Positions 22,462-63,497 of a DNA stretch of 64,000 bases are shown piece after piece. The notes under the pieces are model-generated. The model ran no database searches, was not told the origin of the DNA, and saw only the letters and a program-made list of their open reading frames with translations. This DNA is from Candidatus Woesebacteria bacterium. GTDB taxonomy: Bacteria; Patescibacteriota; Microgenomatia; UBA12405. Positions within the stretch are counted from its first letter, which is position 1. Every line of letters begins with the position of its first letter. The translations under genes and the position numbers were made by a program. The stretch is taken from positions 49,801 to 113,800 of the forward strand of contig DAONDY010000002.1 of NCBI GenBank assembly GCA_035402805.1, given 5' to 3'.

Positions 22462-23034
22462 TTAGTTGAAGATAGAGAAAGCTTTTGACAAGGAAACTAG
22501 CTTTGAAGATTTAGAAACGGTACCAAAATGGAAAACCACGACTTCTTTTGGTCCAGAAGGATAATTGACCTGGCCAATAGCTACACCATAGGCATTGTAT
22601 TTGGGGTTTAAAAGATTTTTTCGGTGAGATGGTGAATTTATCCAGGCGGTAATAATTTTATCGCTGGAAGAGAAATTAGAGGCTAGATTTTCAGCAATGG
22701 CAGTTTTAAAACCGGTTTGTCTAATAAAAGAATCCCATTTTTGTGAAGTAGTGGGGTTATCATGACTCCAATAAAGATATTTTTGCATATCTGCTAATTT
22801 AGCAGCGGCGGCTTGATTAAGTTTAGAATTTTCACTTAAAACAGGAAGAAAGCTTTGACGACGAGTTGCGGTAACTTTCTCAACCAATTCATTTTTAGAA
22901 ACAGCAAAAGAACTCTTGGATAGAGAGAAAAATAAAACAAATAAAATAAAGAAAAAACATTTTTTCATCTTGGGCGATGATAAAATGAAAGAATTATTCG
23001 ATGCTTGATTGGTTTTCTGACATCTTTTTGTCAA
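22462..23034 (-). CDS. Secreted CAP/SCP (YkwD-like) domain protein
   Basis: Signal peptide; NSPSHRKNLLNPKYNAYGVAIG CAP motif. Confidence 0.7.
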   Translation of the reverse strand: MTKRCQKTNQASNNSFILSSPKMKKCFFFILFVLFFSLSKSSFAVSKNELVEKVTATRRQSFLPVLSENSKLNQAAAAKLADMQKYLYWSHDNPTTSQKWDSFIRQTGFKTAIAENLASNFSSSDKIITAWINSPSHRKNLLNPKYNAYGVAIGQVNYPSGPKEVVVFHFGTVSKSSKLVSLSKAFSIFN

Positions 23035-24194: not shown

Positions 24195-26001
24195 TATTAG
24201 ACAACAAGAAAATGAGGGAATTAATTTTACTGATTCCTTATGGTATTTTTTAGGTAATCAAGAAAAAAATAAACTAACTGATACGGGGGTGTTTTTTTTA
24301 AATGAATTAGTAAAAGAAATTTTAAAAAATGAAAACGAGATGCAGTTGGGAGGAAGTGCAGCAGAAGTTTTGTCGGGATTAATTACTCCAGAAGAATATT
24401 GGGGCATAAAAGGACAATTTAAAAAATTAAACGATAATTTATCTCAAAAAAATGGAGAGGAAAATAAAATAATTAAATCAGCATTAGAAACTTTAGCTAA
24501 TGGAGATGTAGATTTTGATTTTTATGTTAGTAAAGAGGACCATTTAGAAACCATTTTCGACAATATTTACAAAGAATGGGGCGAGCAAACCCAAATTCAG
24601 GAAAGTGATGTTAGAGGAAGTTTTTTTGAGATAAAGATTACTGAAAAACTAAAGGCTAATATTTTTTATGGACCAATTTATGAGGGAAGTCTAATTAAAA
24701 GGGTTTGTTTGCAATTAAAAGACAATGAAGAAAAAAGAATATTTCATATGGATATAACTTCAAATCCAGAAACGGGAAGCGACCAAGCAATACAGAGGAG
24801 ACATTTTATAGGCGAAATACATGACAATTGTAGGGGTAAATTAGTAGTAGATGATAATCAAATTAAAATTATTTTTGACAAAAACCAATTACCAAAAGCC
24901 AACCAGGAATCAACCCTAAAAATTGATAAAAAAAGTGAAAAAACAAAAATTGAAGTGACTTTAAGAGAAATGCGAAAAAAAATAATGCATTTTGATTCTA
25001 ATAAAAACAAAGAGGGAAGAAAAAATTTTGAAATATCTAGATTATTTCCATTGATGAATGTGGATAGTCTATTTGATTTAAGGGAAATGAGTTTTGGAGA
25101 AAAACCAAAGATAGAAGAAATATTTCAAAAACAAAAACCGGCTCAAAAACAAATGATTTATCAAGAATTATTTTTAATGGCTCAAAAGGATCCTTTTTTG
25201 ACAGTCATTTTTTTACAAGACAGTGGTTTGGATTTAGTATTTTTTGGAAGACATTTGGAAAGAAAGGAAGCATTGGCCCTAATGGCGTCAGAACATTTAA
25301 AATATGACCTGGGAAATAATTCCCCAAGCCAAACAATTAAAAATTCAAGGGAAAAATATTTAGATTTAAAAGAAAATGATTCTAAAAAAAATGGTTTAAA
25401 GAGATTGATAGCGGCAATTGGACAAGTGTTATCGAAGGAAAAAACTGACTTCGATGAACATTTTGAGGAAGGATGGAAAATTTTGATTGATCCAAAAAAT
25501 AAAGTAACTGAGGTAAAACAGCGAGAAATTACAACAGAATTAAAAGAGACAGAAAGAAAAATATTTGAAAAAATAATTTATGGAGGTGGGTTAACCGAAA
25601 GAAGATTAAATGGATTAATAGAAATTAATAAAAAAGAATTTAAGAAAGCACTTTTTAACCTCAAAAAGAAAGGTCTAGTTGAAGCGGCAAGAAGAGAGGT
25701 GTTGATGGATGGAGAAAAAAGGGGTGTTTATTTTTATTATCCATGTTGGACGGAAACAAAAATAGAAACAATCTTGGAAGTAGCTGGCAAAAGTGATCTT
25801 ATTTCCAAGATTTATAAAAAAGCTAGAATTGAAAATCTGGAAGCGGCTTTAGCAATAAAAACCGAAGAGTTACAAACTGGTGATTTTTGGGACAAAATAA
25901 TGGCATTATTTCACCCTCATCTGATTTTGAAATTAATAACCTATCAAAACGAAATTGAAAAAGAAGGCAAGTTTAAAAGGTATTATTTAGACAGAAATTA
26001 A
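24169..26001 (+). CDS. Hypothetical 610-aa protein
   Basis: ORF only. A possible wHTH-like segment lies near residues 470-500. Confidence 0.45.
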   Translation: MAMNIEQYNIRQQENEGINFTDSLWYFLGNQEKNKLTDTGVFFLNELVKEILKNENEMQLGGSAAEVLSGLITPEEYWGIKGQFKKLNDNLSQKNGEENKIIKSALETLANGDVDFDFYVSKEDHLETIFDNIYKEWGEQTQIQESDVRGSFFEIKITEKLKANIFYGPIYEGSLIKRVCLQLKDNEEKRIFHMDITSNPETGSDQAIQRRHFIGEIHDNCRGKLVVDDNQIKIIFDKNQLPKANQESTLKIDKKSEKTKIEVTLREMRKKIMHFDSNKNKEGRKNFEISRLFPLMNVDSLFDLREMSFGEKPKIEEIFQKQKPAQKQMIYQELFLMAQKDPFLTVIFLQDSGLDLVFFGRHLERKEALALMASEHLKYDLGNNSPSQTIKNSREKYLDLKENDSKKNGLKRLIAAIGQVLSKEKTDFDEHFEEGWKILIDPKNKVTEVKQREITTELKETERKIFEKIIYGGGLTERRLNGLIEINKKEFKKALFNLKKKGLVEAARREVLMDGEKRGVYFYYPCWTETKIETILEVAGKSDLISKIYKKARIENLEAALAIKTEELQTGDFWDKIMALFHPHLILKLITYQNEIEKEGKFKRYYLDRN

Positions 26002-35173: not shown

Positions 35174-36088
35174 ATGGAACAACACCCTATTCCACAGCAG
35201 ATATCATCCTACGAATTTAAACTTGTGGGAGATATGACCTTGAAACAATTTTTAAAGGCAGGAGCAGGAATAATTTTAGCAATACTGATTAATTCGACTA
35301 AATTAATAGTCTTGGTTAAATGGCCATTGATGCTTTTGTTTGGTGCTGGTGGTTTATTGTTGGCGTTTGTACCGTTCGCAGACAGACCTTTGGAGTCTTG
35401 GATAGTTTCTTTTATAAAAGCAATTTATTCACCAACGATTTATACCTATCAGAGAAAAGGTAATAAAAATTGGCTAGATTTAGATTTGACAAAAACAACG
35501 AAACAAAGCGAAGAAGATATTGTAGTTTCTAAAACTAGATCACCGTCTTTAGGAAGTAAAATAAAAGACAGTATCGCCACAATGGGGATAAAAATTAACA
35601 AGGAAGAAAGACAAACTGAAGAGACTGAAGCAACTGAAAATATAAAAACAGAGACTAAAGTAATTCCAAGACAAGCAAAAGTTGAAGAAGTTAAAAAGGG
35701 AGCTGTTAATGAAATACAAAAAGATGATTGGAGGGATCAAAAAGTTGATCTAAACTTAAAAACAGAAAAACTTGGAGCAACCGGTGAAGTTATTTTTGGA
35801 AGTATACCAATGCCAGATATTCCAGAAATTCCAAATGTAGTGGTGGGAATGGCAACGGATAGAGATGGAAAAATAGTTGATGCAGTTATTGTGGAAATTC
35901 AGGATGAAAATGGAAATCCATCAAGAGTATTAAAAACAAATTCCTTAGGGCAATTTAAAACAACTACCCCATTGGCTAATGGTAGATACCTGATAATTGC
36001 AGAGAAAGACGGTTATAATTTTGATAGAGTTAATATAGACTTGAAAGGACAAATAGTTCAACCGGTCAAAATAATTGCTAATAGTTAA
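35174..36088 (+). CDS. T4SS-associated membrane protein: N-terminal VirB3/PrgI-like TM hairpin plus C-terminal CarbopepD_reg-like beta domain
   Basis: Two adjacent TM helices (GIILAILIN..., LMLLFGAGGLLLAFVPF); C-terminus GRYLIIAEKDGYNFDRV. Lies immediately upstream of VirB4. Confidence 0.45.
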   Translation: MEQHPIPQQISSYEFKLVGDMTLKQFLKAGAGIILAILINSTKLIVLVKWPLMLLFGAGGLLLAFVPFADRPLESWIVSFIKAIYSPTIYTYQRKGNKNWLDLDLTKTTKQSEEDIVVSKTRSPSLGSKIKDSIATMGIKINKEERQTEETEATENIKTETKVIPRQAKVEEVKKGAVNEIQKDDWRDQKVDLNLKTEKLGATGEVIFGSIPMPDIPEIPNVVVGMATDRDGKIVDAVIVEIQDENGNPSRVLKTNSLGQFKTTTPLANGRYLIIAEKDGYNFDRVNIDLKGQIVQPVKIIANS

Positions 36089-36797
36089 AAATAAAATGCC
36101 AACAGATCCATTAAAAATCGCCATTAAGGGAAGCACTCAAGAACATTTACCAATAGAGGATATTATAGATGGGATTGTGATGTTAAAGGATGGTTCTTGT
36201 TCGATAGTTTTGAGCGTTTCTTCGGTCAATTTTGATTTATTATCAGAGCAAGAACAATCTGCTTTGGTTTTTGCTTATGGCGGAATTATAAATTCTCTAA
36301 ATTTTCCAATTCAAATTATTATCCAATCACACTCTAAAGATGTGAGCTCTTATCTAAAAAACTTGGAAAACATACAAGAAAAACAAGTCAATCCTCAGCT
36401 AAAAGAGAGAATTAAACAATATCGAAAATTTATAGAAGAAACGGTCAAGAAAAATAATGTGTTGTCTAAATCTTTTTATATTGCTGTTAGTTTTTCGACC
36501 TTAGAATTGGGAATCAAAAGTGGCGGAGTTAAAGGGGCAATGATGTTTTTGCCAAAAAACAAAAAACAGGAACTGCCTTTTACTAAAGAGTATATTTTAG
36601 AAAAGGCTAAAGCTAGTTTAGAACCAAAAAGAGATCATTTAGTTAGACTATTTTCAAGATTAGGACTGGAAATAGAACCATTAAACAATAAAAAATTGAT
36701 TGACCTTTTTTATAGAACTTACAATGAAGAAACAGCTATTAATCAAAAAATTCAAAACGTAAACTATCAAGCACCGGTAGTAAATGGAGAAAAATAA
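36075..36797 (+). CDS. Hypothetical T4SS-associated protein
   Basis: ORF between the VirB3-like and VirB4 genes on the same strand, with overlapping ends. Confidence 0.4.
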   Translation: MLIVKNKMPTDPLKIAIKGSTQEHLPIEDIIDGIVMLKDGSCSIVLSVSSVNFDLLSEQEQSALVFAYGGIINSLNFPIQIIIQSHSKDVSSYLKNLENIQEKQVNPQLKERIKQYRKFIEETVKKNNVLSKSFYIAVSFSTLELGIKSGGVKGAMMFLPKNKKQELPFTKEYILEKAKASLEPKRDHLVRLFSRLGLEIEPLNNKKLIDLFYRTYNEETAINQKIQNVNYQAPVVNGEK

Positions 36798-39207
36798 AAT
36801 GAAATTATTCAACAAAAAAACACCACCAGCAAATAATCCGACTCCAGTAAAAGAGAACGAAAATCAAAGAGATTTTACGTCTGGATTGGTAACAACCAAA
36901 GATATAATTGCCCCCGCCTCTTTAGAGGTAGATTTCAATCATATTAGAATTGACAATAAATATTACCGAACCTTATTTGTGGCAGCATATCCGAGATTTG
37001 TAGGGATTAATTGGCTGTCATCATTAATTAATTTTGATTCATCTTTAAACATTTCGATGTTTATTTATCCGACTGATGGAAAAGAAGTTTTAGATGATTT
37101 GAGAAGAAAAATTACGGAAATGGAGGCTGAATTGAGCACTGATATTCAAAGAGGAAGATTGATTAATCCAGCAACCCAAGCAAAATTGGAAGATGCCTTA
37201 AATTTACAAGCCAACTTGGTCAAAGGAGAGGAAAGATTTTTTCAATTCGGGCTTTATATCACGATAACCGCAGACACAGTGGCAGAATTGGATAGAACCA
37301 ATAAAAATTTAGAGGCAGCTTTAGGATCGCTTTTGATTGTGAGTAAAAGGGCCACTTTGCAAATGGAAGACGGTTTTATAACAACATTGCCAATTTGTCG
37401 AGATAAATTGTCGATTAGTCGAAACATGGATACAACATCTTTGGCAACAACTTTCCCTTTTGTATCTTCTGATTTATCCGATGATAGGGGTGTTATGTAT
37501 GGGGTTAATATGCACAATGGGTCGCTGGTTATTTTTGATCGATTTTCAATGCAAAATTACAATTCAGTAGTTTTTGCGACAGCCGGTGCTGGTAAGTCTT
37601 ATTTAATTAAACTGGAAGTGCTTCGATCATTAATGATGGGGACTGAAATTATTGTCATCGATCCAGAAAATGAATATAGAGAATTATGTGTTAGTTCTGG
37701 TGGTCAATATATTGCTTTTGGTTATGGAGAGGGTTCTAAAATTAATCCATTTGATTTAACTTTAGCCGAAGAAGAGGGTGAAAATGGTTTAAATACTAAA
37801 ATTCTATCGCTTCATAAATTATTAAAAGTAATGTTGGGAGAAATGGATCCAATCGAAGAGTCAATTATGGATAGAGCAATGATGGATACCTATAAAATGA
37901 AGGGTATTACACCAGACCCAGCAACTCAAAATAAGGAGGCACCACTAATCGAAGATTTATATAAATCACTGATTGGGATGGAAGATGAAAAGGCAAAGAG
38001 CTTGGCTGCTAGATTGGAAAAATATATCAAAGGATCTTTTGCTGGAATTTTTAACCAAAAAACAACAGTGGAGTTAAATAATAAATTTGTGGTTTTTGGA
38101 ATTAAAAATCTAGAAGACGTGTTGAGACCAGTGGCTATGCAAATTATTTTGGACTATATTTGGACGGTAGTTAAAAAGACACTTAAAAAGAGAATACTGG
38201 TGGTTGATGAGGCTTGGTATTTAATGCAACATGAAGATTCGGCAGAATTTTTAAGAGGAATTGTTAAGAGAGGAAGAAAATACTATTTAGGAGTAACAAC
38301 AATTACCCAAGATGTGGATGATTTCTTGGAAACTGCCTATGGTAAGGAAATTGTTACTAATAGCGCAATCCAAATCTTATTAAAGCAACACAGTGCAGCA
38401 ATTGATCAAATTGGAGAAGTTTTTTATCTAAGTCAAGGGGAAAAACAGTTGTTATTATCGGCAAACAAGGGAGAAGGGATATTTTTTGCTGGACAAAATC
38501 ATGTGGCGATACAAGTAATTGCGTCAGAAGATGAACATAACTTAATTACATCGAATCCTGAGGATGTGTTAAAAAAACAAAATCTGTTGGGTAACTCCAA
38601 ACCAGATAATGGTTTTAAGGCGCCGATTCAAAATCCCTCTGTCAATAAATTGACATCTCCCTTTGATGAAAGGGAGAAATTAAAAATAGAAGAAGTTAAA
38701 AAAGTTGAAGTGGTACCTAAAATTAATATTCCAGAAATAAAAACCATAGAAATTGAAAACAAAATAAATAAACCGGTTGAACTTGAAGAAAAAAAGCCTT
38801 TAGTACCAGAAAATCAAATTAAACCAGAAATAAAAGATGAATCGGTTTTATTTAAAAAACCAGAAGTGGTAGTAATTCAAAACCCCTCAGTCCCCGATAA
38901 ATCAGTGACAGCTCCCCTTGATAAAAGGGAGCCATTAAAACTAGAAATAAATAAACCTGTTGAAATTAAAGTTGAAGAAGTTAAAAATGAAATCAAAAAA
39001 CCAATTTTTATAAAAAACGAGGAAAAGAGTATTCCCCAACCACCACAATTAAGCAAAAAACCACAACCAGTGTTTGACTTAAACCCACCTGCCCCCGTCG
39101 GGGCACCCTCCCTTGAAAATGGAGGGCAAAAAAATATAAGTGAAACGAAAAAAGATAATTCTGGAAAGATGGATTATGATAAATTGTTTGGTAACGGAAT
39201 AGTCTAG
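36784..39207 (+). CDS. virB4: VirB4/TrbE/CagE-like conjugation-type ATPase with a ~200-aa repeat-derived low-complexity C-terminal tail
   Basis: Walker A VFATAGAGKSYL; Walker B ILVVDEAWYLM; 807 aa. The tail contains repeats A5, A6 and A7. Confidence 0.85.
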   Translation: MEKNKMKLFNKKTPPANNPTPVKENENQRDFTSGLVTTKDIIAPASLEVDFNHIRIDNKYYRTLFVAAYPRFVGINWLSSLINFDSSLNISMFIYPTDGKEVLDDLRRKITEMEAELSTDIQRGRLINPATQAKLEDALNLQANLVKGEERFFQFGLYITITADTVAELDRTNKNLEAALGSLLIVSKRATLQMEDGFITTLPICRDKLSISRNMDTTSLATTFPFVSSDLSDDRGVMYGVNMHNGSLVIFDRFSMQNYNSVVFATAGAGKSYLIKLEVLRSLMMGTEIIVIDPENEYRELCVSSGGQYIAFGYGEGSKINPFDLTLAEEEGENGLNTKILSLHKLLKVMLGEMDPIEESIMDRAMMDTYKMKGITPDPATQNKEAPLIEDLYKSLIGMEDEKAKSLAARLEKYIKGSFAGIFNQKTTVELNNKFVVFGIKNLEDVLRPVAMQIILDYIWTVVKKTLKKRILVVDEAWYLMQHEDSAEFLRGIVKRGRKYYLGVTTITQDVDDFLETAYGKEIVTNSAIQILLKQHSAAIDQIGEVFYLSQGEKQLLLSANKGEGIFFAGQNHVAIQVIASEDEHNLITSNPEDVLKKQNLLGNSKPDNGFKAPIQNPSVNKLTSPFDEREKLKIEEVKKVEVVPKINIPEIKTIEIENKINKPVELEEKKPLVPENQIKPEIKDESVLFKKPEVVVIQNPSVPDKSVTAPLDKREPLKLEINKPVEIKVEEVKNEIKKPIFIKNEEKSIPQPPQLSKKPQPVFDLNPPAPVGAPSLENGGQKNISETKKDNSGKMDYDKLFGNGIV
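38631..38678 (+). repeat. Family A repeat copy A5 (inside the VirB4 tail, in frame)
   Basis: aaatccctctgtcaataaattgacatctccctttgatgaaagggagaa. Confidence 0.75.
38881..38931 (+). repeat. Family A repeat copy A6 (inside the VirB4 tail)
   Basis: aacccctcagtccccgataaatcagtgacagctccccttgataaaagggag. Confidence 0.7.
39087..39130 (+). repeat. Degenerate family A-like copy A7 (inside the VirB4 tail)
   Basis: cctgcccccgtcggggcaccctcccttgaaaatggagggc keeps the two-hairpin architecture. Confidence 0.5.
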
Positions 39208-39223
39208 AGAAGATTGCTATAAT

Positions 39224-41068
39224 TTGATGATGGCAAATGGTGTTAGAGATAAAATTAACGAGCTTTCTGGTGATAGCAGATTTTTGTCTGCAGTTATTGA
39301 AAATATCTTTCAAGAAAAAGAAATAAAAACCAGTAGGGAGGAGGTTGGTGAATTGGTAAGGGTTATTGGGCAAGAATCTAGAGGTAAAAGCGAGAGTGAA
39401 ATTCAAATAGAGGCAAAAAAAATCAGTTTAGAAATTGAAAGGTGGAAAGAAAAAAATCCCGATTTGTCAAAAGAATATAAAAAAGAAGAATTCAAAAAAA
39501 ACTTTCACGAAGAGGCAAAAAAAATAAACCCTAGTTTAAGCGAAGAACAATCAAAAAAAATTGAAGAATATGGTGAATTAGTATCAGATAACTCCTTTGA
39601 TAAAAACGTTTTAGATGGTTATCAGAACGAAGCCTTAGAGGCTAACAAAGATTTTGGACCGGGAAAATTAGAAAACTCATGGTCTGATTTAAAACAGGTA
39701 GTTAATTTTATACAGAAAAGTCCAGAAGAAATAAAAAATATCAAAGATAAATACAATTCTTTAAAGGAGGGTTTAAAAGACGTTAAGGTTCCAAGTAATT
39801 CGAAAGAGGTTAGATCTTTTGAAAAGATTGTATCTAGTTTAAATAACCCAGGGACAGATCAATTATTTTCTAAAACAAAAAATTTTTTAGGTCGGTTGGA
39901 TAAAATAGATAAACTGACTGGTGGATGGTTAAATAAAACGGTAACTGACGCTGGAATGAAAATGGTGAGTAAGATTGGGAATCAGACAATACAAGAATTT
40001 GCAACGAATTCATTAAATGTATTAGTAAAGGAAGGATTTCAACAAGGATTTTCGACAGTTTTGAATGGAGTTTTAAGCGGAGGAGTAAAAGCAGCGGCAA
40101 CAACTGGAACAACAGGTGGAGTGGCAACAGCAACTGGAGTAGCAGCAACCAGTGCAACTGGAGCTGCGGCTGGTGCAACTGGAGCTGCGGCTGGTGGAGC
40201 AGCGGCGGCAACTGGAGCAGCGGCGGCAGGATTATCAGCGACTGGAATTGGAGCAATTGTTGTAGCTGCAGCGGCGGTTCTTAAAGTTGTAAAAGATGTG
40301 GGAAATAAAATAGCAGAAAAATTAGGAATTGATACTAAACAATTTTTTGAAGAAAAATTTGGAAAAGTAGGAGGATTTTTTGTTAAACAAACTATAAAAA
40401 TAACAACGATAACAACAATATCGTTAATACCAATAATTGTTGTTGGATTGGTTATTTTTTTGTTTATCAATGCAATATCTACGGGTTCTTCAGTTTCTAG
40501 TTTAGTGCCACCGGGTGATGAAGTTCAAATATCTGAGACATTGTATGATGAAACCTATGTTTCATCTAATGAACCAATTGTTTTACCGACAGTAATTAAA
40601 AACCAAAAACCAACTGGACAAATGATTGTAGATATGGCTCGATCTCTGTCGGCTAAGGTTTGTTATTATTGGGGCGGAAAAAGTAATGTTATTGGTATTG
40701 ATCCAAAATGGGGTCAAAAAATAACTCCTGATCATATGGGAAGAGATATTGCTGGGCTGGATTGTTCTGGTTTTGTTAATTGGGTTTATCACCAATATGG
40801 ATATAGTCTGGGAAAAATTAAAAGTATGTATGATAATTACACACCAATTAGTGAAAATGATTTACAACCTGGCGATATAGGAATTATAGGTTATGAAATA
40901 AATGGTAAAAATGGATGGCATGTAGGAATATTTACAGGAAGAGATGCTGAAGGTAAATCGATGTGGATTCACTCAGGGTCAACGTCAAAAAGTTTAGGTG
41001 TTTGTAAATCTGGTTTTGTGGCTGAAACTCATGATCCTGGATTTACAAAATTTGCGAGAATATTATAA
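39224..41068 (+). CDS. T4SS-associated cell-wall hydrolase: coiled-coil and Gly/Ala/Thr-rich region, TM, and C-terminal NlpC/P60 (CHAP-like) peptidase
   Basis: C-terminus GLDCSGFVNWVYHQYG...GDIGIIGY...WHVGIFTG (catalytic Cys/His). Low-complexity stretch AATTGTTGGVATATGVAATSATGAAAGATGAAAGG. Confidence 0.7.
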   Translation: MMMANGVRDKINELSGDSRFLSAVIENIFQEKEIKTSREEVGELVRVIGQESRGKSESEIQIEAKKISLEIERWKEKNPDLSKEYKKEEFKKNFHEEAKKINPSLSEEQSKKIEEYGELVSDNSFDKNVLDGYQNEALEANKDFGPGKLENSWSDLKQVVNFIQKSPEEIKNIKDKYNSLKEGLKDVKVPSNSKEVRSFEKIVSSLNNPGTDQLFSKTKNFLGRLDKIDKLTGGWLNKTVTDAGMKMVSKIGNQTIQEFATNSLNVLVKEGFQQGFSTVLNGVLSGGVKAAATTGTTGGVATATGVAATSATGAAAGATGAAAGGAAAATGAAAAGLSATGIGAIVVAAAAVLKVVKDVGNKIAEKLGIDTKQFFEEKFGKVGGFFVKQTIKITTITTISLIPIIVVGLVIFLFINAISTGSSVSSLVPPGDEVQISETLYDETYVSSNEPIVLPTVIKNQKPTGQMIVDMARSLSAKVCYYWGGKSNVIGIDPKWGQKITPDHMGRDIAGLDCSGFVNWVYHQYGYSLGKIKSMYDNYTPISENDLQPGDIGIIGYEINGKNGWHVGIFTGRDAEGKSMWIHSGSTSKSLGVCKSGFVAETHDPGFTKFARIL

Positions 41069-41087: not shown

Positions 41088-41468
41088 ATGATTGATTTTT
41101 TAAAAAGATATTTTATCTTAATTGTTTTGGTTATTTTAGTAATAATTTTAATTTTTTTAAAGATTTTTTATGGAAACAATGATAAAAATCCTGATAATTA
41201 TTCCACAAAAATAACACCAACTGAAGTACCAGTACAAACATCTTTTGAAACCGAAAGTGAGGATATTGTTCCAGCTGAAGATTATGTATCAGTATTGCCA
41301 TATTTGGGTAAAAAAATGAAAATATTAGGAATTAAACGTCCAGGAGTTTTAGAGATAATGATTGGAGATGAAGCAGATAAAGATGAAGCTATAAAAGAAA
41401 TAGAGTTATGGAAAACAAAATATCCAACATTTAAGGAATACACTTCTGAATTTACGATTCGTAATTAA
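41088..41468 (+). CDS. Small membrane-anchored protein
   Basis: N-terminal TM followed by a soluble domain. Confidence 0.4.
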   Translation: MIDFLKRYFILIVLVILVIILIFLKIFYGNNDKNPDNYSTKITPTEVPVQTSFETESEDIVPAEDYVSVLPYLGKKMKILGIKRPGVLEIMIGDEADKDEAIKEIELWKTKYPTFKEYTSEFTIRN

Positions 41469-42587: not shown

Positions 42588-42895
42588 TGTCTTATATTAT
42601 CAAAAAATGATTTTAATTTAAAGCTTTTATAAAAATGATTTATCAAAAAAATAGTAGTAATGGTTAGTAGAGGGTGTTGATAAGTGGAATAAAAATAAAA
42701 TTGACGGAAAGATATAGAAAAATTTATTTTTAATGGGAGTGAATTAATTAAAAATGATTCTAAAATAGGCATAATTTGATTTTTTGTCTTATAATTTGAT
42801 TTGGAGTTTGGGTAAGTTTCGGGGGAAAAATAAAAAATAAATTGTGGATAAAATTGTGGATAAGTGGTCTTATTAGGTGGATAACTTTTAAATAA
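42588..42895. other. Candidate oriC (dnaA-dnaN intergenic): AT-rich with clustered DnaA boxes
   Basis: tgttgataa at 42676-42684; tgtggataa at 42844-42852 and 42856-42864; gtggataac at 42877-42885. An AT-rich stretch lies at 42600-42660. Confidence 0.6.
42843..42886. promoter_or_regulatory. Cluster of three DnaA boxes (TTATCCACA on the reverse strand)
   Basis: attgtggataaaattgtggataagtggtcttattaggtggataac. Confidence 0.65.
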
Positions 42896-44233
42896 TTAAA
42901 AAGCACTTTTAATTTGGTTAATAAGTTGACGGGTTTGTGAATTAGTGGAAAAGTCACTGTGGATTTTGTCTCGAGCATGCATAATACTGGTGTGGTCACG
43001 ACCACCAAGGAGATGTCCAACTTCTTCTAAGGGTAGGTTTATTTGGGTTAGAAGTAGATAAGCAGTAATATGGCGGGCAGTAACTAAATCTTTTTTACGA
43101 CTTTTTCCACAAAGGTCACTAGTTTTGATATTAAAGTGTTTAGCACAAACTGAAATAATATGACGAGGATTTAGTTTAGTAGTTAGTTCAAAATTATTAG
43201 TTTGTAAATTAGGATTAAAAAAGTTTTGAACAAAAGGAAGATCAATATCCCCTATTTGTTGAGCCATAGCTTGAACAGAAATTTGTTGAAGTTTACCTTC
43301 AATTTCGCGGATATTTGATTCAATATTATTAGCTAAAAATTCGACAGCTTCGGGAGTAATTTTAATTCCCTTTTCTTCTATTTTTTGACTAATTATGGCA
43401 ATCCGCATTTCATAATCGGGAAGTTGAATATCAACAGTTAAACCACCCATAAAACGAGAAACGAGACGGTCTTCAAGATGATCAATTTCACTGGGTTTAC
43501 GATCAGAAGTTAAAATAACTTGTTTACCGTTCATGTGAAGAGAATTAAAAGTGTGAAAAAATTCTTCTTGGGTATATTCTTTTCCAGCAATAAATTGAAT
43601 ATCATCAACTAAAATACAATCTAAATTACGGTATTTATCTTTAAATTGGTTCATAGTTTTGCTCTTAAGAGCATTAACCAACTCATTACCAAAAGTTTCG
43701 GCGGAGAAGTATTTTATTTTTAAATCTGGATTTTTTTTGAGAAGTTCATGACCGATAGCTTGCATTAAATGAGTTTTACCAACACCTACCCCGCCCCAGA
43801 TAAAGAAAGGATTATAAGAAAGACCCGGGTTTTTTATAATTCCTTGGGCGGCAGCATAGGCAAAATTATTACTATTACCAACAACTAAAGTGTCAAAGGT
43901 ATATTTAGGGTGAAGATTAGAGTTATTAGTTTTATTTGGATTGTAGGAAAAAAGCGGAGTGGAATTGGTATCAGTATCAGTTTTGATAATTTCTTGAACA
44001 ATAAAATTAAGGGTATTATCGGCTTTAGTTTGATTATCGAGAGCGTTTTTGATGATGTCGTAATGGCGTTTTTTATTGAAATCAACAGAATAAGTGTTGG
44101 GACAACCAATAGTGGCAATATTATTTTCAATGTTTACGAGTTGGGTTTTTAAAACAAAAGTTTGAAAGATGGCTGGTGCAAGATTAATTTTCAACTCTTC
44201 TTGAGTATTTTTCCAAATTCGGTCAATATCCAT
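42896..44233 (-). CDS. dnaA: Chromosomal replication initiator DnaA
   Basis: AAA+ Walker A GGVGVGKTHLM; Walker B ILVDDIQF; C-terminal DNA-binding domain (RHITAYLL...GGRDHTSIMHA). Confidence 0.9.
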   Translation of the reverse strand: MDIDRIWKNTQEELKINLAPAIFQTFVLKTQLVNIENNIATIGCPNTYSVDFNKKRHYDIIKNALDNQTKADNTLNFIVQEIIKTDTDTNSTPLFSYNPNKTNNSNLHPKYTFDTLVVGNSNNFAYAAAQGIIKNPGLSYNPFFIWGGVGVGKTHLMQAIGHELLKKNPDLKIKYFSAETFGNELVNALKSKTMNQFKDKYRNLDCILVDDIQFIAGKEYTQEEFFHTFNSLHMNGKQVILTSDRKPSEIDHLEDRLVSRFMGGLTVDIQLPDYEMRIAIISQKIEEKGIKITPEAVEFLANNIESNIREIEGKLQQISVQAMAQQIGDIDLPFVQNFFNPNLQTNNFELTTKLNPRHIISVCAKHFNIKTSDLCGKSRKKDLVTARHITAYLLLTQINLPLEEVGHLLGGRDHTSIMHARDKIHSDFSTNSQTRQLINQIKSAF

Positions 44234-44238
44234 TTGAT

Positions 44239-44288
44239 ATCCCTCTTCCGCCGAAAGCGGATTTCCCCTTTTGATGAAAAGGAGACAA
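44239..44288 (+). repeat. Family A repeat copy A8 (variant)
   Basis: atccctcttccgccgaaagcggatttccccttttgatgaaaaggagac. Confidence 0.7.
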
Positions 44289-44332
44289 AATAATAATTAG
44301 GCAGTAAGATGGGCAAAAGTTTTAAATCGAAA

Positions 44333-44383
44333 TTGTGGAAAAATCGATTTGGTAATGTCTATATTAGATGAGTTTTCCACAAA
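44333..44383. promoter_or_regulatory. Inverted pair of DnaA-box-like 9-mers (TTTTCCACA) in the dnaA-rpmH intergenic region
   Basis: ttgtggaaaa at 44333-44342 and ttttccacaa at 44374-44383. Confidence 0.45.
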
Positions 44384-44400
44384 AGAAAAGATATCAAATG

Positions 44401-44450
44401 AAACCCCTTTGTCGATAAATCGACATCTCCCCTTGATGAAGGGGAGAAAT
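44401..44450 (+). repeat. Family A repeat copy A9
   Basis: aaacccctttgtcgataaatcgacatctccccttgatgaaggggagaaat. It produces the spurious N-terminal extension of the ORF called at 44349. Confidence 0.8.
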
Positions 44451-44489
44451 TATTTTTCTAATATAAAAAATAGATTTTGTGTTAAAATA

Positions 44490-44636
44490 ATGCCTATGGC
44501 TACAAAACAAACATTACAACGAAAAGCAAAAAAACATGCTCGTGTTCATGGATTTTTAAAAAGAATGATGGATCATGATGGTAGAAACGTGCTTAAAAGA
44601 AGAAGAACTAAGGGTAGAAAGAAAATAACTGCCTAA
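44490..44636 (+). CDS. rpmH: 50S ribosomal protein L34
   Basis: MPMATKQTLQRKAKKHARVHGFLKRMMDHDGRNVLKRRRTKGRKKITA. The start is ATG at 44490 or 44496. The ORF track's 44349 start runs through repeat A9 and is not credible. Confidence 0.8.
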   Translation: MPMATKQTLQRKAKKHARVHGFLKRMMDHDGRNVLKRRRTKGRKKITA

Positions 44637-44640
44637 AAAC

Positions 44641-44698
44641 AAATCCCCTCTGTCTCTCGACAGGCTCGAGACACCTCCCCTTAACAAAGGGAGAAGTC
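44641..44698 (+). repeat. Family A repeat copy A10
   Basis: aaatcccctctgtctctcgacaggctcgagacacctccccttaacaaagggagaagtc. Confidence 0.85.
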
Positions 44699-44722
44699 AT
44701 TATAAAATGATAAAATTTAGGT

Positions 44723-58756: not shown

Positions 58757-60406
58757 TTACCCTGATGTTTCAGTACCGTCGTCGTCGTTTCTTGATGTTG
58801 TGTCTGATGGAGCTGGCGTGCTTGCTTGTCCAGCAGTTTCTTTTCTATTTTTTCCTTTTATTGAAAGTGAAATAGCATTAGTAGCTTTGCCGGCTGCTGA
58901 ACTTGCCATTTCTTTGCCAAAAGATCCGACGCTTTTAATAGCAGTGTTACTACTGACTGCTTCACCAATGGCTTTGCCAAAGGCAGATGGTTTTAACATA
59001 AATATAGCTTCGGGAACGAGGTTTGGAAGCTTAGAAATCATAGCAAGACCAGCAAGACCAATGGCGGCTCTTATTACAGCTCCACCACCAAGAGCACCAG
59101 TGTTTAATAAGGATGGTCGCCAGAGATCTATTCCAGCAACATTGTCGATAATGTAGTTAATGAAAACGACCGCGATTAAAACGACTGGGAAAACGGCGAC
59201 TTTAGAAATTAAATTAATCAACCAAGAGGAAAATCCTGCTTTACTGTTGGGAAAAGCTCCGATACCAATCATAATGGGAGCGGTAATTATTTGGATAATA
59301 ATAGTGACATAGGCAGTGAGAAGGCCGAAAAATAATTTTATTAACCAAATAGCGATTATAATAAACAAAACAATCATTAAAACAACTCCACCGACAGCAC
59401 CAACTAACCAACTAATTGCACCGCCACCCCAATTTAAAGCCCCACCAACACCACTACCAAAAAGACCACCGAGACCACCAATTATACTGCCTAAAACTAC
59501 CTGGCCGACAAGTCCACCAAGAGCTAGCATTGATCCACCAGGAACGGTGGCATTGGCTAACATAGAAAGGGTGACAAAATCAGCATTGGCTAAATTCTTA
59601 AAATTATAAAATGAGTTAGTTCCAATGAGGTCGACTGGAATAAGATTAGCCCATTTAGCTCCAGTAAAAAGAGACGAATCTAATCCTATTCCCTTAGCAG
59701 AGAAAAAGATCATAAGAACCATACCTTGGATCCAATAGCTTAAATCGATGATTAAACCGGCAATAGCATAAGAAAAAGTGACTAAAACTAGAGAGGTAAC
59801 CAATTTGGGAATACTGTTTTGAAGGGTGATGACGGCTTGGGGACTGATTTTTACCCGGAGCATAATCATAATACCAATTACAATAAAAATAACCGAAGCT
59901 AGGGCGTAAATAACGTTTCTTAAAATTTTCCATAAGGGAAGCAATGGTTGAAGACTTTCACCAGATTTAAAAGCAACGCCTTGAGCATAAGTGGGTTTAC
60001 CTAGAAAATTATTTTTGACTTGAGCAATATACTCGACACCAGAAGCTTGCGGCTGATAAAAAGCAGTAGCCATTTTAGTGGAAGTGCCTAAAAGCCCTGA
60101 TAATTGATATTTTGATTCATCAATTGAGCCATCCTCATTGAAAGGTAGTGGTCCGGTTAAAGTGGTTAAAAGATTAACAGCGTTGGTATTCCAAGAGTTT
60201 AATTGCCAAGATTCGGCGTTATTTTGTTTAGTTTGGGCGTCTTGAGTTTGTTTGATTATATTGTTGGCGGCAAGGATTTTTTTTACAGAGAAGATCGCAG
60301 TGATGGCAATAAGGGCAATAAAAATTATTTTAGTTAGAGTATTTATACTTGGCAAAAGACGAGTATCGCGGGAGTTGAGTTTTTTAAAAATATTAGCGAT
60401 GGACAT
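58757..60406 (-). CDS. TrbL/VirB6-like polytopic T4SS membrane protein
   Basis: 549 aa with at least 8 TM helices and Gly-rich helices (GGLVGQVVLGSIIGGLGGLFGSGVGG); Ser/Thr/Asp-rich C-terminal tail; heads the operon that ends with the pilin-like array. Confidence 0.55.
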   Translation of the reverse strand: MSIANIFKKLNSRDTRLLPSINTLTKIIFIALIAITAIFSVKKILAANNIIKQTQDAQTKQNNAESWQLNSWNTNAVNLLTTLTGPLPFNEDGSIDESKYQLSGLLGTSTKMATAFYQPQASGVEYIAQVKNNFLGKPTYAQGVAFKSGESLQPLLPLWKILRNVIYALASVIFIVIGIMIMLRVKISPQAVITLQNSIPKLVTSLVLVTFSYAIAGLIIDLSYWIQGMVLMIFFSAKGIGLDSSLFTGAKWANLIPVDLIGTNSFYNFKNLANADFVTLSMLANATVPGGSMLALGGLVGQVVLGSIIGGLGGLFGSGVGGALNWGGGAISWLVGAVGGVVLMIVLFIIIAIWLIKLFFGLLTAYVTIIIQIITAPIMIGIGAFPNSKAGFSSWLINLISKVAVFPVVLIAVVFINYIIDNVAGIDLWRPSLLNTGALGGGAVIRAAIGLAGLAMISKLPNLVPEAIFMLKPSAFGKAIGEAVSSNTAIKSVGSFGKEMASSAAGKATNAISLSIKGKNRKETAGQASTPAPSDTTSRNDDDGTETSG

Positions 60407-60436: not shown

Positions 60437-61234
60437 TTACCATCCCTCTGGTCGGAGACCTTCGAGGCCATTGGCATTATTAGCATCGATATTAAGCTGG
60501 GATGAGAAAAAATTATTTAATTTAATTTTTTGACTTTCGACTGTTTTATTTTGATCTTGGTTTTGATAGGGGATTGGCTGATCCATTATTTTAATAGTAT
60601 TGGCCTTGTCGCTGCTGTCGTTGGAAATATCTTTGATTGGAGTTAAAAAGAAATCATTATAAATTCCTTCATAACAAGGTAATTCGTAATCGGGAATTGA
60701 TGGTTTGGTTTCGATTTGAGCCAAAAGATCGGCTGGAGTATCTATTTTGGTATCATTTTCATCACAGATGAATTTTTGATTGGTTTGAGTAAGATAAAGA
60801 GCTAAATCACTAATTTTTTTTTCGAGACATTCATTAGAATCGGAACAAATTTTGCCAAGGATTTTATCCTGAGCTTTACCGTTAAAAACGTCATTAATAA
60901 TTTTACCTTTAAGACAGTCTTGAGTGTTGCTGGCGGTGGTTCGAGAACCAACGTAGGAGTGTTTATTTTTATATTCATCAGAAAGAGAGATATTTCCATA
61001 ATCAGAAAAATCTTCAACTTTTTCATTTTCACCACGATTGATATCGATATCGTAAGGTTTTTCAAAGAGACTGGTGATCCATTCCCAAATTATTTCAAAA
61101 ATATTGGGATTATATTTTTCAAATTTACAAGTATAAGTAGGAGTGGAAGTGGAAGTTGAATTTTGGGCAGAAACAAAAATGGGGGTAAATAGGGGAACGA
61201 TTAAAAATAATAAAACAATTAGAAAACGTTTCAT
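60437..61234 (-). CDS. Secreted Cys-containing protein (T4SS-associated surface protein candidate)
   Basis: Signal peptide MKRFLIVLLFLIVPLFTPIFVSA; 10 Cys. Confidence 0.5.
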   Translation of the reverse strand: MKRFLIVLLFLIVPLFTPIFVSAQNSTSTSTPTYTCKFEKYNPNIFEIIWEWITSLFEKPYDIDINRGENEKVEDFSDYGNISLSDEYKNKHSYVGSRTTASNTQDCLKGKIINDVFNGKAQDKILGKICSDSNECLEKKISDLALYLTQTNQKFICDENDTKIDTPADLLAQIETKPSIPDYELPCYEGIYNDFFLTPIKDISNDSSDKANTIKIMDQPIPYQNQDQNKTVESQKIKLNNFFSSQLNIDANNANGLEGLRPEGW

Positions 61235-61623: not shown

Positions 61624-61672
61624 AAACCCCTCCAGTTTGTTTTGGAGGGGTTTAAAAATCAGTTTGATTTAA

Positions 61673-62050
61673 TTAGAAAGGTTTGATGGTTAGATCACCA
61701 AGGATGCTAATACCAAAGACAGTTCCAATTAATTGCATTATGGCCCAAGCGGCAAAGACAATCACTAAACCGATTAAAGCGTTAGTAATTTGAGAACGAG
61801 CGGCAGCAACTTTCTTTTCATCACCACCAGAAGTAATCCATTTAAGACCACCAATGACGAGAATGAAGAAAAAGATTAAAGAAACGATAATTAAAACTAA
61901 GCTAATAGCGCCAGAAACCATGCGGTTGACGGTTAAACCTTCAAGGTTTTTGAAAGTTCCTTCTCCAGCGGTTAATTTTAAATTTTCAGCTGCATAGATA
62001 GGAGCGGCAACTGCAGCGAACTGAATTTTTTCTTTGATTTGTTTGATCAT
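61673..62050 (-). CDS. Pilin-like two-TM protein, paralog 2
   Basis: Signal-like AAPIYAAEN; loop TSGGDEKKVAAARSQ; TM2 LIGLVIVFAAWAI..IG. Confidence 0.5.
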   Translation of the reverse strand: MIKQIKEKIQFAAVAAPIYAAENLKLTAGEGTFKNLEGLTVNRMVSGAISLVLIIVSLIFFFILVIGGLKWITSGGDEKKVAAARSQITNALIGLVIVFAAWAIMQLIGTVFGISILGDLTIKPF

Positions 62051-62102
62051 TTTAATTTAATAATTATTAATATTAACTAATTTTAACAGTAAATTTTATA
62101 TT

Positions 62103-62459
62103 TTAAATAGTTGGCCAGCTAATTTCTAAATTACCCAATCCTTCAATACCAAAAATGTAGCCAACTAGCTTGAGAAGGGCAAGGACTGAAAAAATAATAA
62201 CAACACCGATTATGGAATAAAGAAGAGCATGTTGGGCTTCTTCGTATTTTTTGGGATCACCTTGTGAAGAAATCATTTTGTAGCCGGCGAGAATAAAATG
62301 ATAAACAAAATAAATGACACCAAAAACAAATAAAACAGAGATTAAACTTTGAACAATGCTGTTAACATAGGTTTTGGGATTGTTTTGGATTTTACTTTCA
62401 CAATCGGTTAAAACTGGGTTGCAAACAATGGCGCGAACTGGTTTGATTAGATTTATCAT
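62103..62459 (-). CDS. Pilin-like two-TM protein, paralog 3
   Basis: Loop SSQGDPKKYEEAQHA; TM2 IIGVVIIFSVLAL..VG. Confidence 0.5.
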   Translation of the reverse strand: MINLIKPVRAIVCNPVLTDCESKIQNNPKTYVNSIVQSLISVLFVFGVIYFVYHFILAGYKMISSQGDPKKYEEAQHALLYSIIGVVIIFSVLALLKLVGYIFGIEGLGNLEISWPTI

Positions 62460-62461
62460 AA

Positions 62462-62821
62462 TTAATTTATTGGTTGGAAAATGGTAGTTAAATCAAAAAT
62501 ACTGTTCATACCCAATAGAGAGGCGATTAAAGCGCCTAATCCGTAGGCAATAACTATGATGGCTAATCCAAGAAGGTTGGTGGTTAATCTTTTTTTTGCA
62601 GATTCCAACTCTTTTGGATCACCTTGAGAAGATATCATAGCAATCCCCGCCATAATTATTTGAATGGTAAAGTAAATAACACCGACTAAAGTTAATATAC
62701 CAATAACAGCACTAATTATTTTTTCGATCTGACCGGCTGATCCACCAGTTGAATCAGAGATTGGTTGAATACCTGGACCCTCAAGGACATTGGCTAATAA
62801 TTTATTGTTTAATTGGTTCAT
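62462..62821 (-). CDS. Pilin-like two-TM protein, paralog 4
   Basis: Loop SSQGDPKELESAKKR; TM2 LLGLAIIVIAYGLG. Confidence 0.5.
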   Translation of the reverse strand: MNQLNNKLLANVLEGPGIQPISDSTGGSAGQIEKIISAVIGILTLVGVIYFTIQIIMAGIAMISSQGDPKELESAKKRLTTNLLGLAIIVIAYGLGALIASLLGMNSIFDLTTIFQPIN

Positions 62822-62830
62822 AAATTTAAA

Positions 62831-63151
62831 TTAAATAGTTGGATTAAGAATATCTAAACCAAGCCAGTTACCAATGGTGTTAGCAAGAATGAAAGCTGAG
62901 GCAACAATGGCGATACCAATAAGGCTTTGCCAGATAGTGGCCCAAGCTGCAGAAGTTTTTTTCTCGTCACCATTGGCGGTAAGATAGCCATAACCAGCAA
63001 GAATAATTTGAATGATAAAATAAATACCAGCGATAGTGCCGGCTAATTTGAAAATAGCGTTTAAAAACAGAAAGAGGCCGGATCCATCATCTTTAGCAAA
63101 AAATGGACTATTTTCTATTGGTGGTTTGATTTCGCCGAATATTGAAAGCAT
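62831..63151 (-). CDS. Pilin-like two-TM protein, paralog 5
   Basis: Loop TANGDEKKTSAAWAT; TM2 LIGIAIVASAFIL..IG. Confidence 0.5.
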   Translation of the reverse strand: MLSIFGEIKPPIENSPFFAKDDGSGLFLFLNAIFKLAGTIAGIYFIIQIILAGYGYLTANGDEKKTSAAWATIWQSLIGIAIVASAFILANTIGNWLGLDILNPTI

Positions 63152-63152
63152 T

Positions 63153-63497
63153 TTATAAATTTGAATTTAAAATATTAACTCCGGTAATTTTTCCTATAAT
63201 TTGGATTATGGTATAGGCGAGGAGCACTATAATAAATCCAATTGCGGCATTGGTAATAGCAGATTTGCCTTGATCGGCTTTTTTAGAATCACCTTTACCT
63301 GCGTTCATTATAAAGGTAATTCCGCCAAAAATCAAAAGAGAGAGCAGTATAATACCGGCAAGCATTAGAGAATATTTTAAAATAATCGAAATAAGAGTAC
63401 TGACACCGCCGTTTCCATAAGCGGCTTCAAGATTTTTACCTGTTCCTAGATTGATATCACCTATATTGAAGGCTAATAATGATTTCATACTTGCCAA
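63153..63497 (-). CDS. Pilin-like two-TM protein, paralog 6
   Basis: Loop NAGKGDSKKADQGKSA; TM2 AIGFIIVLLAYTI..IG. Confidence 0.5.
   Translation of the reverse strand: MASMKSLLAFNIGDINLGTGKNLEAAYGNGGVSTLISIILKYSLMLAGIILLSLLIFGGITFIMNAGKGDSKKADQGKSAITNAAIGFIIVLLAYTIIQIIGKITGVNILNSNL

Follow-up and report, generated by a model that had tools for sequence, protein, structure and literature searches.

We analyzed a stretch of 64,000 nt from a Candidatus Woesebacteria bacterium (GenBank assembly GCA_035402805.1, contig DAONDY010000002.1, positions 49,801 to 113,800), referred to below as the window, in which two groups of genes resembling those of a type IV secretion system (T4SS) lie on either side of dnaN and dnaA. 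All coordinates given are positions within the window. Our analysis indicates, with a probability of roughly 0.85, that the window carries a vertically inherited, chromosomal T4SS of the Patescibacteria (candidate phyla radiation, CPR), derived from MPF_FATA, in a Shapirobacteria-like member of the Microgenomatia. The system is real and has already been described in kind, and should thus be considered a further member of a published system and not a new kind. A preliminary description of the same DNA, made from the sequence alone, had proposed a chromosomal, non-conjugative apparatus instead of an integrated conjugative element (ICE). This central interpretation is correct, but it is published knowledge that was posed there as an open question.

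Indeed, in Southlakia epibionticum a T4SS with its pilin array (locus tags SEML1_0006-0019, near gene 1) is essential and is accompanied by no recognizable coupling protein or relaxase (Wang et al. 2023, PMC10633639). A survey of 3,035 Patescibacteria genomes found a monophyletic VirB4 clade nested in MPF_FATA, with TrsD as the most abundant partner of VirB4, together with PrgI/VirB3, and with arrays of 2-11 VirB2 genes that are enriched in Microgenomatia; relaxases are near-absent, and virB4 lies close to dnaA, dnaN, rnpA and rpmH (Quiñonero-Coronel et al. 2025, PMC12102498). A 2025 review considers the same system and stresses that its function is unknown (PMC12857230). The ultra-small Patescibacteria have few machines whose essential role in epibiotic life has been shown, and their T4SS is one of these. 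The window provides a clean, well-conserved Microgenomatia example, to which it adds a VirB6 candidate missed by profile searches.

The VirB4 module

The first module consists of five genes on one strand that overlap or sit less than 20 nt apart (Table 1). All of the open reading frames (ORFs) reported in the preliminary description exist at the coordinates given there, and its assignments for this module hold for three of them. The first, read there as a PrgI/VirB3-like protein with a CarbopepD_reg-like C-terminus, matches PrgI with 26.5 bits and CarboxypepD_reg with an E value of 2.2e-5 in Pfam, and hydropathy places two transmembrane (TM) segments at residues ~29-70. The PrgI match is borderline (cut-off 27), while homologs in two related loci, L020 and L024, present the same architecture and score above the cut-off (35-37 bits). 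This fusion of PrgI with CarboxypepD_reg is a modest addition from our analysis.

The ORF that follows, overlapping the first by 14 nt, had been left as a hypothetical protein and should instead be considered a TrsD-like N-terminal VirB4 module, as it matches VirB4_plasma (E 5e-8, model positions 104-234), CD1110 (E 2.3e-7, model positions 2-122) and TrsD/TraD (E 5.9e-6). These scores lie below the curated cut-offs, which apply to full-length proteins, and the ORF is located directly upstream of virB4 and overlaps it. No TM segment is predicted, and the protein is 91% identical to its counterpart in L001. The VirB4 ATPase itself, as had been proposed, is unambiguous: it scores 386.7 bits against NF045971 (the CD1110 family; cut-off 325, model positions 179-734) and 111 bits against Pfam P-loop_TraG, and its Walker A (AGAGKS) and Walker B (ILVVDEAW) motifs are intact. 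PrgJ of the enterococcal plasmid pCF10 aligns to it with 25% identity over 570 residues (E 2e-35), and Agrobacterium tumefaciens VirB4, used as a query, returned no match to it. The resemblance to Gram-positive-type systems noted earlier is thus seen both in the VirB4 family and in the PrgJ match. The C-terminal tail of VirB4 (residues ~600-807, 38580-39207) is a K/E/P-rich, low-complexity segment of ~200 residues with a repeated 'IQNPSV...' motif; it is retained in the Shapirobacteria orthologs, and alignments to distant Patescibacteria VirB4 proteins (44-46% identity) end at about residue 600.

The fourth gene encodes the NlpC/P60 hydrolase that had been predicted. A charged, K/E-rich N-terminal half is followed by a Gly/Ala-rich linker, one predicted TM segment (residues 390-428) and the NlpC/P60 domain, in which the catalytic motifs are in place (the Cys of DCSG and the His of HVG). 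The linker is encoded by a perfect tandem repeat at 40152-40228 (21-bp x2.1, or 18-bp x4.2), and among close relatives the catalytic domain is far more divergent than the conserved N-terminal region, as seen in L001. The fifth gene, which separates the hydrolase gene from dnaN (401 bp from the end of the one to the other), occupies the position of PrgL (VirB8-like) in the pCF10 gene order and has positional counterparts in L001, L004 and L005. Its product has no Pfam or NCBIfam family match, and it was rejected as a VirB8/PrgL protein, as no sequence similarity to PrgL was detectable.

The pilin module

The second module lies 17.7 kb away on the opposite strand and contains six small ORFs (61234-63497), a gene for a secreted protein and a gene for a polytopic membrane protein. 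As with the first module, the genes are tightly packed on one strand, and both modules look like operons. The six ORFs had been described as pilin-like, and all of them match PF18895 (T4SS_pilin), five above the cut-off; two also match TrbC/VirB2 weakly. They are 27-30% identical to one another, and in common they have two TM helices with an xSxGDxKK loop between them. The fourth, whose score falls below the cut-off, aligns with the other five and has the two TM helices and the GDxK loop motif in common with them.

Each paralog has its own positional ortholog in the related loci L040 (69-95% identity) and L041 (43-59%). The six-gene array must therefore be older than the divergence of these Shapirobacteria, with each copy maintained since. 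The ratio of nonsynonymous to synonymous substitution rates (dN/dS), calculated against the closest relative as for all genes considered below, is 0.053 for pilin 2 and 0.14-0.26 for the others. Judged from these comparisons, the six paralogs are ancient and individually conserved. This pattern argues for functional specialization or a mixed filament rather than for a recent amplification of the antigenic-variation type, and that each of the six was kept argues for a division of labor among them.

Pilin 2, with 95% identity in L040 and 59% in L041, is likely the major pilin subunit. A strong terminator-like hairpin directly follows its gene, an arrangement that is typical of the gene for a major subunit, and this hairpin is possibly an attenuator that sets the best-conserved pilin apart from the genes downstream. 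Overall, the promoter and terminator scans gave results at chance level, and the hairpin after pilin 2 was the sole exception.

The secreted protein that had been predicted between the array and the polytopic protein does begin with a signal-like segment. Only 12 homologs were found in a collection of 5.8 billion proteins, too few for a useful model. It is 68% identical to its counterpart in L040, is not detectable in L041 and shows a dN/dS of 0.18; it thus appears to be lineage-specific and fast-evolving.

A further observation concerns the flank of the pilin array. A gene for a membrane protein of the 7TM-transglutaminase type (63624-64000, + strand, running off the end of the window) is followed in relatives (L040 1-6625, L041 1-6161) by an ATP-grasp gene and two genes for RimK-like ligases. 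This cluster is always divergent from the array, and may be a peptide- or surface-modification cluster tied to the pilins.

Table 1 Features of the window considered in the analysis, with strand and supporting evidence.
Position	Strand	Feature	Evidence
35174..36088	+	PrgI/VirB3-like membrane protein, K/E-rich linker, C-terminal CarboxypepD_reg beta-sandwich domain	Pfam, hydropathy
36075..36797	+	TrsD-like protein, free-standing homolog of the VirB4 N-terminal domain	NCBIfam
36784..39207	+	VirB4 ATPase, Gram-positive (CD1110 / MPF_FATA) type, ~200-residue K/E/P-rich C-terminal tail	NCBIfam, Pfam
39224..41068	+	Cell-wall hydrolase (VirB1 analog), C-terminal NlpC/P60 domain	Pfam NLPC_P60 39.4 bits, residues 481-589
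41088..41468	+	Small single-pass membrane protein, no assigned function	One N-terminal TM segment
41469..42587	-	dnaN (beta clamp)	Translation; 95% identity to L001 ortholog
42588..42895	.	dnaN-dnaA spacer, 308 bp, AT-rich stretch (42590-42660) and DnaA-box cluster; oriC-like or dnaA-regulatory	Box search
42896..44233	-	dnaA	Translation; 92% identity to L001
54956..56647	-	DUF6909 protein, cytoplasmic	Pfam DUF6909 530.8 bits; no TM segment
56774..58705	+	643-residue cytoplasmic all-alpha protein, unannotated family	Convergent with the VirB6-like gene
58757..60406	-	Polytopic membrane protein, 549 residues, candidate VirB6 equivalent	Hydropathy, fold, context
60437..61234	-	Secreted Cys-rich protein, 265 residues, between pilin array and VirB6-like gene	N-terminal signal-like segment
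61234..61623	-	VirB2-like T4SS pilin paralog 1	PF18895 36.2 bits; 2 TM; orthologs L040 80%, L041 49%
61653-61624	-	Terminator-like hairpin directly 3' of pilin 2	11-bp stem, 6 GC pairs, then T-run
61673..62050	-	VirB2-like T4SS pilin paralog 2, best conserved	PF18895 43 bits; NCBIfam Mbov_0395 pilin-like E 2.3e-7
62103..62459	-	VirB2-like T4SS pilin paralog 3	PF18895 42.5 bits; TrbC/VirB2 E 0.002; orthologs 73%, 43%
62462..62821	-	VirB2-like T4SS pilin paralog 4	PF18895 22.7 bits (below cut-off, 26.6)
62831..63151	-	VirB2-like T4SS pilin paralog 5	PF18895 30.9 bits; TrbC/VirB2 E 0.001
63153..63497	-	VirB2-like T4SS pilin paralog 6, first gene of the array	PF18895 35.4 bits; orthologs 79%, 49%

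A candidate VirB6

The 549-residue protein, encoded by the last gene of the string that holds the six pilins, had been called TrbL/VirB6-like. Its polytopic nature stands: it has ~7 hydrophobic segments, where at least five TM segments are expected, and its AlphaFold2 model is all-helical. A sequence-level assignment does not stand. No Pfam or NCBIfam match was obtained at E<=0.1, no PDB sequence match was obtained with the single sequence or with a family profile (phmmer/hmmsearch), and comparison with pCF10 PrgH and A. tumefaciens VirB6 gave HHalign probabilities below 1%. An identical protein in NCBI carries the label Candidatus Woesebacteria, a group of the Microgenomatia, as are the Shapirobacteria. 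The 441 homologs are all unnamed and without Pfam domains, and a TrbL domain was found in 0 of 441+8 members of the family, including those from a second search that started from the L020 member.

Structure and gene context provide the remaining evidence. The AlphaFold model, built with 35 sequences, is of moderate quality (predicted local distance difference test, pLDDT, 66.9), and in a Foldseek search of the PDB, VirB6 (TrwI) of plasmid R388 occupied ranks 1-3 (E 0.29-0.42, probability 0.69-0.84), which is a weak match, with DotA at rank 6. TrwI/VirB6 and DotA were the top structural neighbors in two independent programs, with weak scores. In L020 and L024, the family has a member (HHalign probability 98.65%, E 4.7e-16) whose gene is part of a single cluster in the order M23 peptidase, VirB6-like protein, small ORF, PrgI with CarboxypepD_reg, TrsD, VirB4 and dnaN, which corresponds to PrgH-PrgI-PrgJ-PrgK-PrgL in pCF10. 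As the VirB6-like gene there lies beside prgI-trsD-virB4, the split into two modules is probably a lineage-specific rearrangement of one system.

From weak fold similarity and gene context, we lean towards considering the 549-residue protein a VirB6 equivalent, though it should not be referred to as a demonstrated family member. VirB6 has been noted as scarce in Microgenomatia, and this was attributed to extreme divergence (PMC12102498); it is plausible that the family described here is the answer.

Conservation and selection

For synteny, the proteins of the window were compared with 38 related loci by tblastn. The 36 best VirB4 genome matches all belonged to metagenome-assembled genomes (MAGs) of the Patescibacteria type (Candidatus Shapirobacteria and others; 44-86% identity), and the close relatives, at 60-86% identity, were all Shapirobacteria/Patescibacteria MAGs. 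The only VirB4 match outside this group, at 28% identity, was in a Clostridia-labeled locus, L037 (CATKDT010000046.1), in which VirB4 and a TrsD-like ORF lie ~5 kb from dnaA-dnaN-yidC. Either the contig is mis-binned or mislabeled, or it represents a monoderm genome whose T4SS likewise lies near the origin.

The comparison of relatives, which the preliminary description had suggested as a check, revealed the layout to be conserved in ~20 Shapirobacteria loci, with the order trxB, GT4, 5'-3' exonuclease, PrgI, TrsD, VirB4, hydrolase, dnaN, dnaA, rnpA, yidC, jag, wzy and flippase. This gene order is retained down to ~60% VirB4 identity. Module 2 and its surroundings recur in L040, L041 and L046, where the VirB6-like protein is 84%, 45% and ~39% identical, in the order 7TM-transglutaminase with ATP-grasp and RimK, pilins, secreted protein, VirB6-like protein, large unknown protein, DUF6909, FtsH, RNHCP and DUF4012. 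Both modules were present at the same place in all relatives examined.

The T4SS genes are under purifying selection, with dN/dS values of 0.04-0.26, like housekeeping genes. In addition to the values given above, dN/dS was 0.13 for the PrgI-like gene, 0.036 for the TrsD-like gene, 0.057 for VirB4 and 0.13 for the VirB6-like gene, as compared to 0.048 for dnaN, 0.063 for dnaA and 0.053 for ftsH. GC content (0.33-0.38) is close to that of the surrounding DNA.

Absence of mobility genes

The preliminary description reported no VirD4, VirB11, relaxase or integrase, and this is what we found: reading of the translations, comparison of unclear ORFs with Pfam and tblastn with pCF10 PcfC and PcfG, the Tn916 integrase and A. 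tumefaciens VirB8, VirB11 and VirD2 revealed no coupling protein, relaxase, VirB11 or integrase in the 64-kb window. A relaxase, coupling protein and integrase nearby had been named as the finding that would point to a degenerate ICE; they were looked for in the window and none was found. Likewise, neither module has oriT-like or relaxosome genes near it, and VirD4, VirB11, a relaxase and an integrase were also absent from the flanks of the window.

To the left of the window, at ~8-9 kb from position 1, a group consisting of an HTH_3 regulator, a Peptidase_M78 protein and a 441-residue serine recombinase is found (L042 17808-19946). This group is probably a separate remnant of a prophage or mobile element, unrelated to the T4SS. 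The serine recombinase was rejected as an ICE integrase, as it lies ~44 kb from module 1 and has its own HTH_3 and Peptidase_M78 neighbors.

Proposed mechanism and alternative explanations

The mechanism that we infer draws on R388, on the biology of Gram-positive T4SSs and on the Patescibacteria literature. The PrgI/VirB3-like protein would anchor a complex of TrsD and the VirB4 ATPase at the membrane, where the polytopic VirB6-like protein would provide both the channel and a platform for pilin loading. The peptidoglycan would be opened by the NlpC/P60 enzyme, and polymerization driven by VirB4 would turn the VirB2-like pilins into a pilus or tube in contact with the host bacterium. As there is no relaxase, the system would be used not for conjugation but for epibiotic interaction with a host, in which it would either export proteins or take up macromolecules of the host.

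Several points weigh against the identification as a Patescibacteria T4SS and should be considered when referring to it. In this genome, PrgI falls 0.5 bit under the Pfam cut-off, and the window revealed neither a VirB8-like protein nor a coupling protein. The VirB6 assignment lacks sequence-family support, with weak fold matches (Foldseek E ~0.3, TM-score ~0.4 on the target). For Microgenomatia, pilus formation is our inference, as are the cargo and the direction of transport, and for the putative functional link between the modules we draw on homology and on lineages in which their genes are co-located.

For cargo and direction only, an inward-working machine should be considered: in place of exporting effectors, a ComB-like or novel uptake conduit would bring in nucleic acids or other macromolecules of the host via the VirB2-like pilus. 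Patescibacteria lack nucleotide synthesis, and the T4SS has been proposed as an uptake route (PMC11665869, PMC12857230); a 2026 preprint describes feeding on host RNA, together with tubular structures, possibly T4SS pili (10.64898/2026.06.21.733656). Moreover, neither operon holds an effector-like gene with a recognizable domain. Nothing in the window bears on direction, with neither ComEC nor a nuclease encoded, and we regard import as a tentative proposal of rather low probability.

The window could also encode one part of a working system for conjugation or DNA export, with the coupling protein and relaxase encoded elsewhere in the genome. Most Patescibacteria genomes do carry homologs of the VirD4-like type IV coupling protein (T4CP), usually far from virB4, and our view of this genome covers 64 kb and ~20 kb of flanks. 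Relaxases are, however, rare, being found in only 103 of the 3,035 surveyed Patescibacteria genomes (PMC12102498), and Southlakia can dispense with its T4CP homolog but not with its T4SS (PMC12102498, citing PMC10633639). Together with the lack of oriT-like and relaxosome genes near either module, this renders conjugation improbable.

We consider it just as improbable that the modules are functionally independent, with the pilin, secreted and polytopic proteins building a surface filament of their own and merely sharing a neighborhood with the VirB4 operon. The distance and opposite strands of the modules would allow this, as would the lack of a sequence-level VirB6 signature in the polytopic protein; as the whole region is syntenic in Shapirobacteria, adjacency by itself is, moreover, little informative. 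Nonetheless, in other classes the T4SS_pilin family is co-located with virB4, with matches 1-2 kb downstream of VirB4 in L027, L029 and L035 and co-location in 1,135 assemblies (PMC12102498), and the polytopic family has its homolog beside PrgI-TrsD-VirB4 in L020 and L024. Module 2 also encodes no other ATPase that could power assembly.

Finally, that a conjugative element landed beside dnaA and is now decaying is very improbable, and synteny, selection and the lack of mobility genes in the window led us to reject it: although the CD1110 family of VirB4 is otherwise typical of ICEs and plasmids and a serine recombinase lies beyond the left end, that recombinase is separated from module 1 by ~40 unrelated genes, the gene order is common to ~20 Shapirobacteria loci, dN/dS is as low as in dnaA, dnaN and ftsH with catalytic motifs intact, no relaxase, T4CP or integrase lies within 64 kb and GC content is near that of the surroundings. 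The chromosomal, vertically inherited T4SS thus remains our preferred explanation.

Replication origin and strand composition

According to the preliminary description, the two modules flank the replication origin. What stands is that dnaA and dnaN lie between them, with conserved DnaA boxes: the dnaN-dnaA spacer contains perfect boxes (TTATCCACA) at 42843 and 42855 and one-mismatch boxes at 42675 and 42876, and three more one-mismatch boxes are found upstream of dnaA, at 44334, 44373 and 44410. Box positions are conserved in 12 relatives, and the classical rpmH-rnpA-yidC-jag // dnaA-dnaN arrangement is present.

What does not stand is support from strand composition, as neither GC skew nor GC skew at third codon positions (GC3 skew) inverts. 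Read along the + strand, GC3 skew is positive (+0.08 to +0.71) for 64/64 ORFs irrespective of their strand, and from one end of the window to the other it climbs smoothly from ~0.31 to ~0.51, without a step at dnaA. The skew likewise keeps its sign across dnaA in 11 close relatives (left, +0.2 to +0.3; right, +0.3 to +0.45), and no inversion is seen in a further 9.4 kb to the left of the window or 6-10 kb to its right. In a more distant Patescibacteria locus, L022, the skew does invert, from -0.10 to +0.16. Judged by skew, the + strand is leading over a stretch of at least 80 kb that includes dnaA. This pattern fits an origin located elsewhere, very unequal replichores or effectively unidirectional replication, and genomes with a skew pattern of the unidirectional type have been noted (Chen et al. 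2020, PMC7111523).

As the skew does not invert at dnaA, the flanking of the origin and the published argument that proximity to the origin provides gene dosage (PMC12102498) are therefore unconfirmed for this lineage, where strand asymmetry does not back them. One could go further and propose that in Shapirobacteria the DnaA-box region between dnaA and dnaN is not a bidirectional origin, with replication starting elsewhere or running essentially in one direction, and that the 549-residue family is the VirB6 that had seemed to be missing from Microgenomatia, moved along with the pilin array. We regard this combined proposal as doubtful. If true, the ancient linkage of the T4SS and dnaA would reflect, for example, DnaA-coupled regulation or frozen synteny, and not origin-proximal gene dosage.

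Neighboring genes

The region between the modules, given earlier as about 17 kb of housekeeping genes with dnaN, dnaA, rpmH-jag and ftsH, indeed contains these in its 17.7 kb; in full, dnaN, dnaA, rpmH, rnpA, yidC, jag, genes for a Wzy-like protein, a flippase, DUF4012 and RNHCP, ftsH, and those for DUF6909 and the 643-residue protein. The last two had been put forward as candidate substrates or accessory factors, and this was not upheld. DUF6909 has a housekeeping-like dN/dS of 0.06 and yielded no PDB match with a single sequence or a 3-sequence profile; its adjacency is conserved in L040, L041 and L046. The 643-residue protein, for which no informative structural match was obtained, is cytoplasmic, and its gene is in convergent orientation to the VirB6-like gene and in divergent orientation to DUF6909. 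Neither large gene is part of the pilin-VirB6-like string. Adjacency of the two is conserved, but so is the whole region, and there is no evidence either for or against their being substrates or accessory factors.

Two further observations were made. Within 44260-44700, rpmH is flanked by three GC-rich hairpins that resemble one another and have the form (T)CCCCTT...AAGGGGA (~44264-44287, ~44426-44447 and ~44672-44697); one of them scores as a terminator, and they could represent a short repeat element of the intergenic region between dnaA and rpmH. A stand-alone GGDEF-domain protein (21814-22416, - strand) adjoins a pair of unusual regulators (23001-26001, + strand), one of 397 residues with a C-terminal OmpR-type winged helix-turn-helix (wHTH) and one of 610 residues with a weak TFIIE-alpha/TrmB-like wHTH. 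Together these are unexpected given such genome reduction.

Comparison with known systems

The 549-residue protein is polytopic and alpha-helical in the membrane, as are R388 TrwI/Agrobacterium VirB6 and Legionella DotA. In R388, VirB6 is the platform on which VirB2 pilins are loaded, and the location of the gene beside the pilin array fits such a role. The protein differs from TrwI in being ~2x its size, in showing no sequence-level relationship to it and in having no recognizable VirB5 partner.

In the Trs systems of the Staphylococcus plasmids pGO1/pSK41, a small TrsD, homologous to the VirB4 N-terminus, lies immediately upstream of the VirB4 ATPase (TrsE), as in the window (PMC12102498). 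The relation is remote (26 bits; family cut-off 200), and the Trs systems, unlike that of the window, are plasmid-borne and conjugative, with relaxase and T4CP and without pilins.

The order of pCF10 of Enterococcus faecalis, the MPF_FATA prototype, is PrgH (VirB6)-PrgI (VirB3)-PrgJ (VirB4)-PrgK (hydrolase)-PrgL, and is mirrored by the PrgI-like protein, TrsD, VirB4, NlpC/P60 hydrolase and small TM protein of the window. At the sequence level, no similarity to the window proteins was detected for PrgH, PrgI, PrgK and PrgL. In contrast to the window, pCF10 is a plasmid with a T4CP (PcfC), a relaxase (PcfG) and adhesins, has no VirB2 pilins and carries VirB4 as a single polypeptide.

The closest likeness is to the T4SS of the Patescibacteria clade, from which the window differs in that the pilin array and the VirB6 candidate lie 17.7 kb off, across dnaA and on the opposite strand, in that this candidate escapes all VirB6, PrgH and TrbL profiles, in the CarboxypepD_reg domain of PrgI and the 200-residue low-complexity tail of VirB4, and in a GC skew that does not mark dnaA. 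In common, the two have a VirB4 of the MPF_FATA type with a separate TrsD-like ORF and PrgI/VirB3, a peptidoglycan hydrolase directly downstream of virB4, divergent VirB2-like pilins (six in the window), no nearby relaxase or T4CP, and a chromosomal location beside dnaA, dnaN, rnpA and rpmH.

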